A stretch of 47,047 bases of DNA from a virus (lineage: Duplodnaviria; Heunggongvirae; Uroviricota; Caudoviricetes), in IMG/VR virus record IMGVR_UViG_2872703611_000004; one strand, 5' to 3'. The translations under genes and the position numbers were made by a program. The notes beneath the pieces are model-generated. The model worked only from the letters and a program-made list of their open reading frames with translations, ran no database searches and was not told the DNA's origin. This document shows positions 3,135 to 17,256 of the stretch, piece by piece (position 1 is the stretch's first letter; each line of letters opens with the position of its first letter).

Positions 3135-3737
3135 ATGAGCTATTTTCTGCGCAAAAAATGGATGGTAAATTTGTCCGGGTCAGGAAAAATTTTATGGGCG
3201 CTAAACATGAAAAAAGATTCGTATCCTTATTTGATTTGCATGACAGTTTCAGGGCTGATCTTTATTTTCCTTTTCTTCTGGTGGCGGGCAGATATCTACA
3301 GGGTCACGTTTCTTAATCAGAGTATATCCCACTATTACATTCTGTTTAGCATGGGAATAGCTTTTCTGTTATCTCTGTTTTGGGTTAAGAAGGGGATAGT
3401 AAAACAAAGCGGCTGGAAGAGTCTGTCAGCATACCTTAAGGTTTATGCAGGGATGTGCATATTTGCTGGATTTTTTCTGATTATACCCCTTACGACACTA
3501 ACTTATTTTTTGCCTGGAGAGACATCGTCTTATGTTGCACCGTATCGGTATACTTCCGGTAGTTCAAAAAGTTGTTCTGGAGCTGAGGTGGATGACCCCG
3601 ATCTACATGAGAATATTCGCATTTGCTATCCGTATGGCAATTATGAGTACGATAATATTATCTATGTTGAAAAGAAAATTAATATATTAGGTGCGGTAGT
3701 GACATATGCACAGACCGCGCGTGATGATACTGAATGA
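3135..3737 (+). CDS. AT-rich hypothetical integral membrane protein (three or more predicted TM helices plus a ~70-aa C-terminal soluble tail); moron of unknown function; start may be internal (3162 or 3207)
   Basis: 200-aa ORF in markedly AT-rich DNA, opposite in orientation to flanking early genes; hydrophobic segments LICMTVSGLIFIFLFFWW, ILFSMGIAFLLSLFWV, VYAGMCIFAGFFLIIPLTTLTYF; no strong SD at any candidate start. Confidence 0.5.
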   Translation: MSYFLRKKWMVNLSGSGKILWALNMKKDSYPYLICMTVSGLIFIFLFFWWRADIYRVTFLNQSISHYYILFSMGIAFLLSLFWVKKGIVKQSGWKSLSAYLKVYAGMCIFAGFFLIIPLTTLTYFLPGETSSYVAPYRYTSGSSKSCSGAEVDDPDLHENIRICYPYGNYEYDNIIYVEKKINILGAVVTYAQTARDDTE

Positions 3738-3771
3738 TATAGTATATAGCGGGCAAGTTTTAGTTAATTTA

Positions 3772-3806
3772 TCGAGGTAATATAATTTACCTCGACTCGT
3801 TTGTTC
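3772..3806. terminator. Candidate bidirectional terminator after the membrane-protein gene
   Basis: Perfect 9-bp inverted repeat TCGAGGTAA / TTACCTCGA with loop TATAAT, flanked by A/T-rich sequence on both sides. Confidence 0.3.
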
Positions 3807-3947
3807 TGGTATTAATATTTCGCTTTACGACCGATTTTTATCTGATGATATCATGCGGTTTTCATATACTGACTTACTGTCTTTTCTCCGTTAGCGATTT
3901 TCTCCTGCTCAGCGATGATTTTATCTTTGGCTTCTAGTTAATTTCGC

Positions 3948-4169
3948 TCACTTCGAACCTCTCTGTTTACTGATAAGCTCCAGATCTTGCTGGCAACTGG
4001 CACAAGTCCGACAACCCTGAACGGCCAGTCGTCTTCGTTCATCTATCGGATCGCCACACTCACAACAATGAGTGGCAGATATAGCCTGGTGGTTCAGGCG
4101 GCGCATTTTTATTGCTGTGTTGCGCTGTAATTCTTCAATTTCTGATGCTGAATCAATTATGTCTGCCAT
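3948..4169 (-). CDS. TraR/DksA-family C4 zinc-finger protein (RNA polymerase secondary-channel binder type)
   Basis: 73 aa with CxxC...17...CxxC (CCECGDPIDERRRLAVQGCRTCASC), the size and motif of phage TraR-like proteins. Confidence 0.7.
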   Translation of the reverse strand: MADIIDSASEIEELQRNTAIKMRRLNHQAISATHCCECGDPIDERRRLAVQGCRTCASCQQDLELISKQRGSK

Positions 4170-4267
4170 CTTTCATTAATCCCTGAATTGTTGGTTAATA
4201 CGCTTGAGGGTGAATGCGAATAATAAAAAAGGAGCCTGTAGCTCCCTGATGATTTTGCTTTTCATGT

Positions 4268-4549
4268 TCACCGTTCCTTAAAGACGCCGTTCAACATGCC
4301 GATCGCCAGGCTTAAATGAGTCGGTGTGAATCCCATCAGCGTTACCGTTTCGCGGTGCTTCTTTAGTACGCTACGGCAAATGTCATCGACGTTTTTATCC
4401 GGAAACTGCTGTCTGGCTTTTTTGATTTCAGAATTAGCCTGACGGGCAATGCTGCGAAGGGCGTTTTCTTGCTGAGGTGTCATTGAACAAGCCCCATGTC
4501 GGCAAGCATAAGCACACAGAATATGAAGCCCGCTGCCAGAAAAATGCAT
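4268..4549 (-). CDS. Hypothetical early-left-operon protein in the lambda orf61 position; different length and overlap pattern from lambda orf61; internal start at 4483 possible
   Basis: 93-aa ORF in the leftward operon, 10 nt downstream of the orf63 stop. Confidence 0.55.
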   Translation of the reverse strand: MHFSGSGLHILCAYACRHGACSMTPQQENALRSIARQANSEIKKARQQFPDKNVDDICRSVLKKHRETVTLMGFTPTHLSLAIGMLNGVFKER

Positions 4550-4559
4550 TCAGTGGTTG

Positions 4560-4751
4560 TCATACCTGGTCTCTCTCATCTGCTTCTGCTTTCGCCACCA
4601 TCATTTCCAGCTTTTGTGAAAGGGATGCGGCTAACGTATGAAATTCTTCGTCTGTTTCTACTGGTATTGGCACAAACCTGACTCCAATTTGAGCGAGGCT
4701 ATGTGCCATCTCGATACTCGTTCTTAACTCAACGGGAGATGCTTTGTGCAT
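4560..4751 (-). CDS. Lambda orf63
   Basis: 63 aa [63 protein letters not shown]; same length and 28-nt overlap with orf60a as in lambda. Confidence 0.85.
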   Translation of the reverse strand: MHKASPVELRTSIEMAHSLAQIGVRFVPIPVETDEEFHTLAASLSQKLEMMVAKAEADERDQV

Positions 4752-4906
4752 ACAGCTCCCCGTTTATTATTTATCTCCTCAGCCAGCCGCTGTGCTTTCA
4801 GGGGATTTCTGATAACAGAAAGGCCGGGAAATACCCAGCCTCGCTTTGTAACGGAGTAGACGAAAGTGATCGCACCTACCCGGATATTATCGTGAGGATG
4901 CTTCAT
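4724..4906 (-). CDS. Lambda orf60a
   Basis: [60 protein letters not shown]; start chosen at the second in-frame Met to give the 4-nt overlap with exo seen in lambda. Confidence 0.8.
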
Positions 4907-5583
4907 CGCCATTGCTCCCCAAATACAAAACCAATTTCAGCCAGTGCCTCGTCCATTTTTTCGATGAACTCCGGCACCATCTCGTCAAAACTCGCCATGT
5001 ACTTTTCATCCCGCTCAACCACGACATAATGCAGGCCTTCACGCTTCATACGCGGGTCATAGTTGGCAAAGTACCAGGCATCTTTTCGCGTCACCCACAT
5101 GCTGTACTGCACCTGGGCCATGTAAGCCGACTTTATGGCCTCGAAACCACCGAGCCGGAACTTCATGAAATCCCGGGAGGTAAACGGGCATTTCAGCTCA
5201 AGGCCATTGCCGTCACTGCATAAACCATCGGGAGAGCAGGCGGTACGCATACTTTCGTCGCGATAGATGATCGGGGATTCAGTAACATTCACGCCGGAAG
5301 TGAATTCAAACAGAGTTCTGGCGTCGTTCTCGTACTGTTTTCCCCATGCCAGCGCCTTAGCATTAACTTCCGGAGCCACACCGGTGCAAACCTCAGCCAG
5401 CAGGGTGTGGAAGTAGGACATTTTCATGTCAGGCCACTTTTTTCCGGAGCGGGGTTTTGCTATCACATTGTGAACTTCTGAAGCGGTGATGACGCCGAGC
5501 CGTAATTTGTGCCACGCATCATCCCCCTGTTCGACAGCTCTCACGTCGATTCCGGTACGCTGCAGGATAATGTCCGGTGTCAT
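4903..5583 (-). CDS. exo: Lambda exonuclease (Red-alpha)
   Basis: 226 aa [65 protein letters not shown]...; near-identical to lambda Exo from memory. Confidence 0.97.
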
Positions 5584-6365
5584 GCAGCCACCTTCTGCTC
5601 AGTGGCTTTCTGTTTCAGGAATCCAAGAGCTTTCACTGCTTCGGCCTGTGTCAGTTCTGACGATGCGCGAATGTCGCGGCGAAATATCTGGGAACAGAGC
5701 GGCAATAAGTCGTCATCCCATGTTTTATCCAGGGCAATCAGCAGAGTGTTAATCTCCTGCATGGTTTCATCGTTAACCGGAGTGATGTCGCGTTCCGGCT
5801 GACGTTCTGCAGTGTATGCGGTATTTTCGACAATGCGCTCGGCTTCATCCTTGTCATAGATACCCGCAAATCCGAAGGCGAGACGGGCACACTGAATCAT
5901 GGCTTTATGCCGTAACATCCGTTTGGGATGCGACTGCCACGGTCCGGTGATTTCTCTGCCTTCGCGGGTTTTGAATGGTTCGCGGCGGCATTCATCCATC
6001 CACTCGGTAACGCAGATCGGATGATTGCGGTCCTTGCGGTAAATCCGGCATGTGCAGGATTCATTGTCCTGCTCAAAGTCCATGCCATCAAACTGCTGGT
6101 TTTCATTGATGATACGGGACCAGCCATCAACGCCCACCACCGGAACGATGCCGTTCTGCTTGTCAGGGAAGGCGTAAATTTCTTTCGTCCACGGATTAAG
6201 GCCGTACTGGTTGGCGACGATCAGCAATGCGATGAACTGCGCATCGCTGGCATCACCTTTAAATGCCGTCTGGCGAAGAGTGGTGATCAGTTCCTGTGGG
6301 TCGACAGAATCCATGCCGACGCGTTCAGCCAGCTTCCCAGCCAGCGTTGCGAGTGCTGTACTCAT
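5580..6365 (-). CDS. bet: Lambda Bet (Red-beta single-strand annealing protein)
   Basis: 261 aa [88 protein letters not shown]... Confidence 0.97.
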
Positions 6366-6370
6366 CCGTT

Positions 6371-6787
6371 TTATACCTCTGAATCAATATCAACCTGGTG
6401 GTGAGCAATGGTTTCAACCATGTACCGGATGTGTTCTGCCATGCGCTCCTGAAACTCAACATCGTCATCAAACGCACGGGTAATGGCTTTTTTGCTGGCC
6501 CCGTGGCGTTGTAAATGATCGATGCAGAGTGATTCAAACAGGTGCTGGGGCAGACCTTTTTCCATGTCGTCTGCCAGTTCTGCCTCTTTCTCTTCACGGG
6601 CGATCTGCTGGTAGTGACGCGTCCAGCTCTGAGCCTCAAGACGATCCTGAATGTAATAAGCGTTCATGGCTGAACTCCTGAAATAGCTGTGAAAATATCG
6701 CCCGCGAAATGCCGGGCTGATTAGGAAAACAGGAAAGGGGGTTAGTGAATGCTTTTGCTTGATCTCAGTTTCAGTATTAATATCCAT
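6371..6787 (-). CDS. gam: Lambda Gam (RecBCD inhibitor)
   Basis: 138 aa [78 protein letters not shown]... Confidence 0.97.
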
Positions 6788-11140: not shown

Positions 11141-11838
11141 AAAACATCGCCGCACAGATGGTTAACTTTGACCGTGAGCAGATGCGTCGGATCGCCAACA
11201 ACATGCCGGAACAGTACGACGAAAAGCCACAGGTACAGCAGGTAGCGCAGATCATCAACGGTGTGTTCAGCCAGTTACTGGCAACTTTCCCGGCGAGTCT
11301 GGCTAACCGTGACCAGAACGAACTGAACGAAATCCGCCGCCAGTGGGTTCTGGCTTTCCGGGAAAACGGGATCACCACAATGGAACAGGTTAACGCAGGA
11401 ATGCGCGTAGCCCGTCGGCAGAACCGACCATTCCTGCCATCACCCGGGCAGTTTGTTGCATGGTGCCGGGAAGAAGCATCCGTTATCGCCGGACTGCCAA
11501 ACGTCAGCGAGCTGGTTGATATGGTTTACGAGTATTGCCGGAAGCGAGGCCTGTATCCGGATGCGGAGTCTTATCCGTGGAAATCAAACGCGCACTACTG
11601 GCTGGTTACCAACCTGTATCAGAACATGCGGGCCAATGCGCTTACTGATGCGGAATTACGCCGTAAGGCCGCAGATGAGCTTGTCCATATGACTGCGAGA
11701 ATTAACCGTGGTGAGGCGATCCCTGAACCAGTAAAACAACTTCCTGTCATGGGCGGTAGACCTCTAAATCGTGCACAGGCTCTGGCGAAGATCGCAGAAA
11801 TTAAAGCTAAGTTCGGACTGAAAGGAGCAAGTGTATGA
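11137..11838 (+). CDS. P: Lambda replication protein P (DnaB helicase loader)
   Basis: 233 aa MKNIAAQMVNFDREQMRRIANNMPEQYDEKPQVQQVAQIINGVFSQLLATFPASLANRDQNELNEIRRQWVLAFRENG... Confidence 0.95.
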   Translation: MKNIAAQMVNFDREQMRRIANNMPEQYDEKPQVQQVAQIINGVFSQLLATFPASLANRDQNELNEIRRQWVLAFRENGITTMEQVNAGMRVARRQNRPFLPSPGQFVAWCREEASVIAGLPNVSELVDMVYEYCRKRGLYPDAESYPWKSNAHYWLVTNLYQNMRANALTDAELRRKAADELVHMTARINRGEAIPEPVKQLPVMGGRPLNRAQALAKIAEIKAKFGLKGASV

Positions 11839-12008
11839 TGGGCAAAGAGGCAATTATTCATTACCTGGGGACGCACAAGAGCTTCTGTGCGCCGGACGTT
11901 GCTGCGACAACAGGTGTGACATTAACCAGCATAAATCAGGCTGCGGCAAAAATGGCGCGGGCAGGAATCCTGGTCATTGATGGTAAGGTCTGGCGAACGT
12001 TTGTTTAA
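11835..12008 (+). pseudogene. ren: Truncated ren (57 codons instead of ~96); marks a module junction
   Basis: MMGKEAIIHYLGTHKSFCAPDVAATTGVTLTSINQAAAKMARAGILVIDGKVWRTFV then stop; start overlaps the P stop; sequence after the stop is unrelated. Confidence 0.55.
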
Positions 12009-12154
12009 CGGTTAGCTACTCAGGATGATAGGGCGGGGCAAGTGAGTATGAAGCGGATTTTCAGGAATGCCATCAGAGTTTGGAAATAAAGTGGGTTTTC
12101 TAGTGGCAAGAGACTTGATAATATTTAGTTCTTTGAATCCAAGGAGATAGGGTT

Positions 12155-12649
12155 ATGAGAAAATTTATTTTAGCCTTTGTTATAAGTGCCTCGTTTACAG
12201 CAAATGCTGGTGTAGAGAAGTTAGGGCCGTGGATAACAAAGTCTGAGATAAATAAAATGACTGACCAGACTGACTTTGTGGCCCTTAATTTATCACCAGA
12301 TTCATATAACAAAGCAGGTACTGATCGTGCAACTTCACTGGTGTTGCGTTGTAGTGATAACAAAACAGATGCCTATTTATCATTCAATGATTATATGGGT
12401 TCGGACAACCCAAGAATTACAGTGCGGTTAGATGGCGGAAAGCCGGTCAAGAGTGTTTGGGGAGGTGGGGAAGGCGGTGATTCTGCATTTGCTCCACAAC
12501 CAATACAATTTATAAAGACCTTGGCTAAGCATAAAAAAGCTATTTTTGGGTTTGAACCTTATGGATCAACTATGCAAGTAGTTGAGTTTGACTTGTCTGA
12601 GATTGATAAGGTTGTGGAAAAAATTTCACAGTCTTGCAATTGGAAATGA
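12155..12649 (+). CDS. Hypothetical secreted/periplasmic protein with cleavable signal peptide; moron of unknown function
   Basis: 164 aa; SD AAGGAG 8 nt before ATG; N-terminus MRKFILAFVISASFTANA-GVEK is a signal peptide; two Cys; AT-rich; followed by a terminator. Confidence 0.7.
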   Translation: MRKFILAFVISASFTANAGVEKLGPWITKSEINKMTDQTDFVALNLSPDSYNKAGTDRATSLVLRCSDNKTDAYLSFNDYMGSDNPRITVRLDGGKPVKSVWGGGEGGDSAFAPQPIQFIKTLAKHKKAIFGFEPYGSTMQVVEFDLSEIDKVVEKISQSCNWK

Positions 12650-12666
12650 CAAAAAAATTTCATATG

Positions 12667-12693
12667 AACCCAGTTTGCGCTGGGTTTTTTATT
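12667..12693 (+). terminator. Rho-independent terminator after the secreted-protein moron
   Basis: AACCCAG-TTTGCG-CTGGGTT followed by TTTTTTATTT. Confidence 0.75.
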
Positions 12694-13684
12694 TCAGTAG
12701 CCAATAATGCATTCAAAATCTCTTACTTGAGAAACGGCCTATTTGAGATTTCAGTCGTGGCAGGATGATCAGTTGATTCGAGTATTGACGCATTTGCGTT
12801 CGGAGCGATTACAGTAGATTGTAAATAATAATGAGAAACACATAGCCACCCCGTGGTATTGAAACCATATAATGTTGGATTTGAAAACAGATCTTTTCCC
12901 ATGTATTAATAACTACATCCCCGCGAGTGATTCAAAAAGGAGGGCCCAATTTTGTCCGAGTTTTTGTATTCCCCCGCATGCCGCTGCGGAGCACTACATC
13001 TGAGTGTCTGACTAGGGGATAAAATTAGACTGGATAGTGAGAAGAAAGTGGCGCGCTAGGCTGTGCCGAGTGCTACCAGTACACCTTGGGGGTGTGCAGC
13101 TTTCGCCGAGACTGTAGTGGGTATCGGTTAATGCACGAAAAACCGAGAGGTCAGACAACCAATTTGCCGTAGGATTGTTTCCGGTGCGATACCGGTCTAC
13201 TAACTGAAAGCAATGCGAAAAAGCATAAACTCGGTCCTTCAGTCGCCCTACACACTATTTACTAAGAAGGGCTGAAGCATGGATACAATTATTACATGGA
13301 TGGGAGATCGTCTGTTGGGGGGACACAAAAATCCGATCTGCGGCAGATGGCGATCACTGGATTAACTTCCGCGATTTGTTCAACAATTTTGTACACTGAA
13401 AAATTAAAACATGGTGAGCCTATTAACCCAAACGAAGAAGAAAAACTTTATAGGCTTTGGTATGAAGGAAACGCTTGAAAGAATAAAGCACAATTAAAAC
13501 CTTTGATTTGCGATAATCAACTTGCCATAATTAAGTAATCGGAGTCTGAACAACTCCGGTGACTTCTGCGCTAAACGGGGACGTTTATGCGCACATACAA
13601 TCCAAACTATCTTCTCCTTTCACAGATGCAGAAATGCACCTGCAATTCTTTGCATCTAGCGTTTGACCTCTGCGGAGGTGAAGC

Positions 13685-15746: not shown

Positions 15747-16829
15747 TTAGAACTGGTAAACCATACCTACAGCAACGATATCATCGGTAGCAACGCCAGA
15801 TGCTTTCGTGAAATCGCTCTTATCAATCAGGTTGATTTTGTAGTCAACAAAAGTGGACATATTTTTGTTGAAGTAATAGGTTGCACCTACATCAACATAT
15901 TCAACCAGGTCCTGATCACCCCAAACACCCAAGTCTTTTCCTTTAGAATGCAGGTAAGCAACGGATGGACGCAGGCCGAAGTCGAACTGATATTGTGCAA
16001 CAGCTTCGAAGTTTTGTGCTTTGTTGGCAATATGGTTATTACCAAAAACAGTCATGTTCTGGGTTTCAGAATAGGTGGTAGCCAGATAGATGTTGTTCGC
16101 ATCATATTTCAGACCAGCTGCCCATACTTCAGCATTTTGACCAGATGCATTCAGGCTGTTGTTACCGTAGATAACCTGATTATTAGTGCGGTCAGATTTA
16201 GCATAGGTTGCACCTACACCGAATCCTTCATACTCATAAGTAGTGGAGAAACCGAAACCATCACCATTAGCTTCAGTTACGTCAGTGCGGTCATTTTTAC
16301 CCTGATACTGAGCAGCAAAGTTCAGACCATCAACCAGACCAAAGAAGTCATTGTTACGATAAGTTGCAACACCTGTGGTGCGACCAGTCATGAATACATC
16401 TGTTTGGGTCCAGGTATCGCCACCGAATTCTGGCAGAACGTCGGTCCATGCACCAATATCGTATGCTACACCGTAGTTACGGCCATAATCGATGGAGCCG
16501 TAGTCACCGAATTTCAGGCCAGCGAAGGCAAGACGGGTTTTATCTTTGGAGGAACCTTGAGATTCAGCGCGGTTGCCTTTGAATTCATATTCCCACTGAC
16601 CGAAACCAGTCAGTTGATCGTTGATTTGGGTTTCACCTTTGAAGCCAAGACGGGCATAAGTAGTATCACCATCATCTGCATCATTAGAGGAGAAGTAGTG
16701 CTTAGCATTAACTTTCCCGTACAGATCCAGCTTGTTACTGTCTTTATTATAAATTTCAGCTGCCTGAGCAGACATCGCCATCAGTACTGATGCAGCTACA
16801 GCAGAAATTGCCACTGTTAATTTTTTCAT
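15747..16829 (-). CDS. nmpC: Intact general porin of the OmpC/OmpF/PhoE family (NmpC / Lc type), prophage-encoded
   Basis: Signal peptide [23 protein letters not shown], then AEIYNKD...; C-terminal VYQF; start taken at the Met with AGGG 8 nt upstream (track ORF extends to 16889). Confidence 0.9.
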
Positions 16830-17256
16830 CGTGAGCCCTTTTTTTGAACTATTATTAAAAAATGATGTCACTGCGCGATAAATATTCATCTAATCAATGT
16901 GATTATTTCAAGATGTAAGTTTTGGTTTCTCATTTGATTTGTGAAGTAGATCTCTATTTTTATCTGAACTTTTTCTATCGAATCCTATTCATGGCTCTTG
17001 GCTGAATAAAAATAAATCTATTAGCCAATTTATATTAATGGCTGTTATTTATAAGTGCTCTATAATTTGAAGATTCAATTTAAACCAGCTAAAAATAACG
17101 CTGGAAATTATTTGTTGGTTATTTGTTGAGATTTGCTTATGTATTTGTAGTGGTGTTTTCAATACTCGGTAGCATTCTCGCAAATATCATTTAGTGGTTT
17201 ACGTACGTAAAAAATTGGTTATGCTGTTAAGAGTGGTTACTTCGTCACACAGCTTA

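Follow-up and report, generated by a model that had tools for sequence, protein, structure and literature searches.

The question raised by this locus is what kind of gene lies in a lambdoid prophage between the replication genes and the nin block, and what its product may do for the host cell. The window, i.e. the whole 47,047-nucleotide stretch of Caudoviricetes DNA that was analysed (IMG/VR record IMGVR_UViG_2872703611_000004), holds there a short gene which the first-pass annotation, made from the sequence alone, described as a secreted-protein moron that could not be assigned to any family. The 164-aa ORF and the strong Shine-Dalgarno sequence in front of it were found as described (Table 1), and a family can be given after all: the protein belongs to PHROG 1848, matches the Pfam VasI domain and is present in RefSeq under the name TagO. 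It is an already catalogued gene of a known kind, a moron for a predicted exported protein, with a misleading database name.

Table 1. Positions in the window of the exported-protein gene, its signals and the elements on either side
Feature	Position	Strand	Basis or remark
ren pseudogene, left border of the cargo slot	11835-12092	+	in-frame TAA stop at 12006-12008
Candidate extended -10 element TGATAATAT (TGnTAnnnT)	12116-12124	+	motif; 31 nt upstream of the ATG
Shine-Dalgarno sequence AAGGAG	12141-12146	+	direct reading of the sequence; 8 nt before the ATG
164-aa exported-protein gene (VasI/IalB fold, PHROG 1848; identical to RefSeq WP_001224618.1)	12155-12649	+	ATG start
Predicted Sec (signal peptidase I) signal peptide, codons 1-18, ANA|G	12155-12208	+	n/h/c architecture
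Intrinsic terminator	12666-12693	+	9-bp stem, 4-nt loop, T-run
Structured RNA candidate, ~329 nt	12917-13245	+	covariation

A strict scan for sigma-70 -35/-10 pairs found no promoter upstream of the ATG, and extended -10 motifs were therefore sought across the loci. The motif TGnTAnnnT, a feature absent from the first-pass annotation, occurs in the window and in four of five distinct upstream sequences from other phages, each time 39-46 nt before the ATG, at an expectation of about 0.013 per 25-nt zone; the upstream regions that share it are otherwise dissimilar. The terminator at the other end, described as clean, consists of a hairpin stem (12666-12687) and a T-run reaching to about 12693. 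An equivalent hairpin with a U-run follows the gene at all other loci examined, in some relatives even directly before the ribosome-binding site of the tape-measure gene. The AT-richness relative to the neighbours was also borne out, the G+C content being 0.37-0.41 over positions 12000-12900 versus 0.51-0.56 in the O/P genes and 0.48-0.55 in the nin genes (0.48-0.56 taken together).

A chance or hitch-hiking ORF is rejected, because the full-length relatives (55-81% identity) have 49 invariant positions across genera and the cassette is conserved with them; the comparison argues for a real gene. Three of the features by which morons are recognised (Juhala/Hendrix) are present: the gene is an addition that related phages lack at this position, it has a transcription terminator of its own, and its base composition is unlike that of the neighbours. 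The moron reading of the first-pass annotation thus holds, as cargo slot, deviant composition, own terminator, recurrent promoter motif and mobility all agree, and the locus is an autonomous moron cassette made up of a candidate promoter, a Shine-Dalgarno sequence, an ORF and a terminator, placed in the cargo hot-spot between ren and ninB in a lambdoid prophage. The label of a lysogenic-conversion candidate is reasonable, with the weight on candidate.

The left border of the slot had been described as a truncated ren, and this part has to be corrected. The ren frame meets a stop at codon 58, yet it remains 71% identical to lambda Ren over 78 codons, to about 12070, and homology to renD of DLP12 extends to 12079. 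Since the frame runs on past the TAA at this identity, ren is a nonsense pseudogene that was not cut by the insertion; the RefSeq entry for it reads 'protein ren, frameshifted; internal stop'. Lambda has 73 bp and no gene between ren and ninB, while DLP12 of E. coli K-12 carries emrE-ylcJ-ybcK-ybcL-ybcM between renD and ylcH/ybcN, and positions 12080-13501 of the window stand in place of this DLP12 block. The slot empty in lambda, filled by other cargo in DLP12 and by a replacement of that cargo in the window is thus a cargo hot-spot.

Among 5426 complete E. coli genomes, 83 have the gene, always adjoining the ren pseudogene, and the carriers come from soil, wastewater, frogs, crayfish and humans. 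Phage IdasGreatGrand encodes an identical protein in the same slot. In this phage (L002), 1.84 kb of extra small genes annotated as 'hypothetical' (4573-6411) separate the moron from the RNA candidate; these genes are absent from the window, where the junction lies at about 12727/12729. The hot-spot therefore varies between phages that are otherwise ~95% identical.

Two further observations concern the surroundings of the slot. Positions 13503-13531 of the window (+) form a promoter-like sequence (TTGATT-17-CATAAT, with an upstream TG) before a 33-codon ylcH-like ORF and ninB/ybcN. This sequence lies within a stretch whose counterpart in the phage 82 record X92588 carries annotated -35/-10 signals and a 'possible regulator-binding site'. 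Further downstream there is another cargo gene, which encodes a porin of the OmpC/NmpC(Lc) type (380 aa; 15747-16889). It has the opposite orientation (-) and stands between the gene for the Q-like antiterminator and the lysis genes; the window copy is intact, whereas nmpC of DLP12 in K-12 is broken by IS5.

Some 220 bp downstream of the moron terminator begins an element of another kind, a candidate structured RNA. It contains no ORF, as there are stops in all six frames and the variable columns of its alignment show no three-base periodicity (43/47/45). Of the 5426 complete E. coli genomes, 158 have a single copy of the element, in no case annotated; about 66 copies were collected from IMG/VR prophage contigs and the other loci examined, among them roughly a dozen variants at 73-78% identity. 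An alignment of 16 sequences gave a consensus of 84 pairs in 18 helices, 13 of the pairs with compensatory double changes. In this alignment, from which the structure itself had been derived and on which pairing and covariation were then scored, 97.5% of the cells are paired versus 33-49% with slid partners, there are 71 double-change cells versus 3-11, and the covariation score was reached by none of 500 shuffles. Invariant G-U pairs place the RNA on the plus strand. Single-sequence folding gave unremarkable z-scores (-0.28 and -0.54). Rfam 15 had no match for this interval even at E<=10, two pattern scans of species-representative genomes returned no match to the RNA, and a full-text literature search for its core sequences returned nothing relevant.

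Promoter-like hexamers precede the RNA in the window (TTGAAA at 12882-12887 and TATTAA at 12905-12910). Among the variants, TTGAAA, TTGAAT or TTGTAT is followed after 17 nt by TATTAA, TTTAAT or TTAAAT, which ends 6-7 nt before the conserved 5' end. The pair is present in nearly all variants; in one copy (L093) the sequence upstream is unrelated. About half of the divergent variants have an intrinsic terminator after the 3' end of the RNA. Taken together, the interval resembles a gene for a structured RNA, so far undescribed, in lambdoid prophages. Judged from the distribution of the sequences, it is independent of the moron: Klebsiella phage Kp4856-1 has the RNA and no match to the moron protein, and in IdasGreatGrand the two are 1.84 kb apart. 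Immediately after the RNA, the window has a small ORF (13280-13478, +) that is split by a frameshift at a G-run (13313-13319) into a piece of 28 aa starting at 13280 and a 60-aa ORF at 13296-13478, while relatives such as that in L087 (157 aa) are uninterrupted and encode a single small protein.

The assignment of the moron protein rests on an end-to-end match to PHROG 1848 (E 2.7e-70), a family of unknown function, and on a match to Pfam VasI (PF11319) that is marginal (26.7 bits against a cut-off of 26.5) and covers only residues 56-163 of the protein and positions 78-184 of the profile. The short relatives match PF11319 in 26 of 30 cases, with a best E value of 2.4e-18. A profile built from 18 close relatives retrieved 3833 cluster representatives at E<=1e-3, many of them longer proteins that carry the domain at the C-terminus. 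The name under which RefSeq lists WP_001224618.1 in full is 'type VI secretion system-associated protein TagO', and PADLOC gave no match for the window protein.

Whether the name is justified was examined with a genuine TagO as a control, the 247-aa protein ECs_0222 of the T6SS-2 of E. coli O157 Sakai; its gene adjoins the ClpV/tssH gene. The equivalog model TIGR03360, with a cut-off of 124.2 bits, gave 257.4 bits for ECs_0222 and 14.4 bits for the window protein, whose match was limited to profile positions 84-187 and left the N-terminal positions 1-83 unmatched. A profile-to-sequence comparison with ECs_0222 by hhalign showed a genuine homology (probability 96.8%, E 2.8e-10) over 107 columns at 18% identity, which takes in both cysteines and the C-terminal C-x-W motif. 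Because of the low bit score (14.4 versus 257), the partial profile match and the distance of the homology over these 107 columns, the window protein is, on profile comparison, a distant and shortened member of the VasI-domain family and not an orthologue of TagO. TagO/VasI proteins (TIGR03360; ECs_0222 and VCA0118 of V. cholerae) share with it a homologous C-terminal domain of ~110 residues, an N-terminal hydrophobic segment, a mid-chain cysteine and the C-terminal C-x-W. The window protein differs in being 164 instead of 247 aa long, without the ~80-residue N-terminal region of the model, and its gene occupies a prophage cargo slot, whereas that of TagO stands next to tssH in a T6SS cluster.

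It might still be supposed that the protein is an accessory TagO/VasI subunit that supplements or modulates the T6SS of the host itself. The Pfam match, the hhalign probability and the 26 short relatives that match PF11319 are in line with this, and a phage homologue has been given as 'T6SS VasI family' cargo (PMC6456863). The score far below the TIGR03360 cut-off and the unmatched N-terminal part of that profile speak against it. No T6SS cluster was found at the window locus or at any of the relatives' loci examined, and the close relatives all lie in prophage accessory slots. Moreover, carrier phages are recorded on E. coli C, Brucella and Pasteurella, hosts that to our knowledge have no T6SS. 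Such a role is improbable, and the RefSeq name is an over-annotation for the phage-borne subfamily, which could inflate the counts of T6SS and virulence genes in prophage surveys. As the function of TagO/VasI was still given as unknown in a 2026 review (PMC13584744), the homology offers no mechanistic handle.

The Sec signal peptide that had been described, with cleavage after ANA, agrees with the aligned relatives. The N-terminus reads M-R-K, a hydrophobic FILAFVISASF and T-A-N-A|G, so that cleavage after A18 (A16-N17-A18) would leave a mature protein starting at G19. The positively charged n-region, the hydrophobic h-region and small residues at -3/-1, which are the features of a Sec/signal peptidase I substrate, are all there by manual rules checked on 30 aligned sequences. 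The basic residues, a hydrophobic 9-mer and the small-x-small site are kept in 29 of the 30 short relatives despite drift of the sequence itself. In the AlphaFold2 model, residues 1-17 have a pLDDT below 50 and are unstructured. A lipoprotein was also considered and ruled out, there being no lipobox cysteine.

Structure prediction with a fold search had been proposed as a check. AlphaFold2 gives the predicted mature protein (146 aa) an IalB/VasI-type fold, a beta-sandwich plus two helices; the closest fold is that of IalB of Bartonella. The model matches the PDB chains 3dtd_A and 8z5n_A, and its fold neighbours, IalB and a flagellar LPHT-ring chain, are periplasmic or envelope-associated. A sequence search of the PDB with the family profile gave no match even at E<=10. 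Structure matches in BFVD were to uncharacterised phage proteins only, including those of virulent T4-like phages, from varied hosts. Across the 30 short relatives C66, D93, F145 and C161 are invariant and W26, D37, R65, R91, W102, P135 and W163 nearly so; C66 and C161 probably form a disulfide.

The likeness to IalB raises the possibility of a host-interaction or virulence factor. IalB, the invasion-associated locus B protein (PDB 3DTD, PF06776), has the beta-sandwich fold in common with the window protein, at 10% identity, and Pfam IalB gave no match for the window protein; we know of no defined mechanism for IalB. This identity is low, the same fold also occurs in phage proteins from varied hosts, and the E. 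coli carriers are not confined to humans but include some from soil, wastewater, frogs and crayfish, so a virulence role is very improbable.

The product, being small, predicted to be periplasmic and provided with a conserved cysteine pair, resembles known periplasmic inhibitors. It might accordingly be pictured as a decoy or inhibitor that protects the envelope against attack other than by phages, from T6SS effectors, colicins or peptidoglycan hydrolases. Its homology to a T6SS-linked domain and its place among prophage cargo would suit such a function. Searches of Pfam, NCBIfam, PADLOC and PDB, however, revealed no similarity to a known immunity or inhibitor family, nor is there a partner effector gene nearby, which makes this quite unlikely.

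Relatives of the gene in other, unrelated prophages occupy a different slot. They were found in siphovirus tail modules of Klebsiella (P0027, 55% identity), Serratia (P0022, 60%), Pantoea (P0019, 60%) and Salmonella (P0006, 74%), and in two further siphovirus tail modules (P0013, 67%, and P0032, 37%). The gene adjoins the tape-measure gene in all six lineages and is directly upstream of it in five; in the Klebsiella lineage, up to two small genes lie between. On the 5' side, the tail-module copies have a chaperone-like gene or immI-like cargo (Arc, Ant, KilA-N), and such cargo, with YafO as a further member, is often found alongside them. This slot, between the tail-chaperone and tape-measure genes, is the position of gene 15 in HK97.

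The tail-module copies are co-oriented with the late genes, and in the window no terminator separates the gene from the P/ren early transcript. Expression in an early or late operon could thus serve the phage's own lytic growth, for example in lysis timing or in the masking of receptors against loss of progeny on debris, and the occurrence of the fold in virulent T4-like phages suits such a role as well as it does exclusion expressed from a prophage. On the other hand, the gene has its own terminator at each locus and the promoter motif at most of them, a terminator-like hairpin also stands upstream of it at several tail-module loci (L004, L009 and L022), and this insulated layout is typical of prophage-expressed morons. 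A lytic role is therefore unlikely.

In P2-like phages, a VasI-domain gene is found at the end of the prophage. That of phage 500465-2 encodes a longer protein (297 aa) and comes after a zinc-ribbon gene, and that of Klebsiella phage 3LV2017 lies near attR. The arrangement of a ~110-aa zinc-ribbon gene followed by a gene for a VasI-domain protein of 217-297 aa (L026, phage 500465-2, 3235-4465; L015, 875-1888) is seen at the P2-like prophage end and again in metagenomic contigs, and the pair may be a two-gene cassette.

Weighing these readings, the most likely task of the protein is to protect the envelope of the host cell, not to take part in secretion. More specifically, it might act in the periplasmic exclusion of incoming phages, which is the favoured proposal and a tentative one. 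It is favoured because the slots and the cassette are those of known exclusion morons; because the fold neighbours are linked to the envelope and the closest relative by sequence belongs with a machine resembling a phage tail; and because SDIC4B, an exported-type protein of similar fold, reduces phage plating by itself. In the preprint that describes it (10.1101/2024.01.28.577318), SDIC4B is given a 'VasI-like fold' and is reported to confer on its own 10- to 200-fold protection against several coliphages.

According to the exclusion proposal, the gene would be transcribed from the repressed prophage via its own candidate promoter, and additionally as part of the pR early transcript. The product would be exported, lose its signal peptide by cleavage after A18 and form its disulfide in the periplasm, where, as a protein-binding module, it might disturb a machine that crosses the envelope. 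Incoming phages would be blocked at a periplasmic step of tail-tip insertion or DNA delivery, amounting to superinfection exclusion or anti-phage defence, and the protein would perform no service for the host's own T6SS. A broader idea, rather doubtful at present, is that the exported VasI-domain proteins of phages are a large and so far unrecognised group of exclusion factors, which act in the periplasm and jam injection machines of the tail type, phage tails and T6SS alike; if this were true, their target would also show what TagO/VasI does in the T6SS. Since the subfamily recurs in classic exclusion-gene slots in several host genera, it offers a cheap and well-defined candidate for anti-phage and envelope-protection assays, and a phenotype found here could provide the first functional handle on the TagO/VasI/IalB fold.

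Among the known systems, SDIC4B deserves a closer comparison. Its sequence, recovered from the map of the deposited plasmid, falls into the YfjT family (PF27224), which is found on CP4-57-type islands. Like the window protein, SDIC4B is small and starts with a sequence resembling a signal peptide, and two cysteines, one mid-chain and one C-terminal, are invariant in its family. The predicted order of secondary-structure elements is similar, and the SDIC4B/YfjT model matches the same two PDB chains, 3dtd_A and 8z5n_A. The genes of this family lie on mobile islands, in company with a WYL regulator gene and a gene for a 150-aa protein, presumably YfjS, whereas the window family is found in phage genomes. 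An alignment of the YfjT family with the window family by hhalign was not significant (probability 1.9%), nor was one made with the single SDIC4B sequence, and precomputed Pfam assignments differ (PF11319 for the window family, PF27224 for YfjT). Membership of the window protein in the SDIC4B/YfjT sequence family is thus ruled out and, in view of this lack of significant sequence relatedness, the link is regarded as an analogy of fold and architecture, with no homology claimed. A separate point concerns the SDIC4 system itself. SDIC4A and SDIC4B of the Serratia preprint, which we take to be the yfjS-yfjT gene pair, correspond to genes located downstream of the WYL regulator in CP4-57-type islands (L017, L019 and L020, genes at 3725-5474). 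Both products start with signal-peptide-like sequences, which suggests that the SDIC4 system may act in the envelope; signal peptides and the periplasm are not mentioned in the preprint (10.1101/2024.01.28.577318).

The DLP12 cargo (emrE, ybcK, ybcL and ybcM) is the nearest parallel in terms of position, as it occupies the same hot-spot beside a closely related nin region and includes another periplasmic protein, YbcL, although it has no sequence relationship to the window gene. The closest parallel for the relatives in the tail modules is gene 15 of HK97, the archetypal moron and the element that gave rise to the term, whose product acts in superinfection exclusion (PMC3594210). This product, gp15 (YebO-like), is a small inner-membrane protein unrelated to the window protein, a predicted soluble periplasmic beta-sandwich, but the two genes are built on one cassette plan (promoter, gene, terminator, deviant G+C content), and the slot of HK97 gene 15 is the same as that of the relatives of the window gene.
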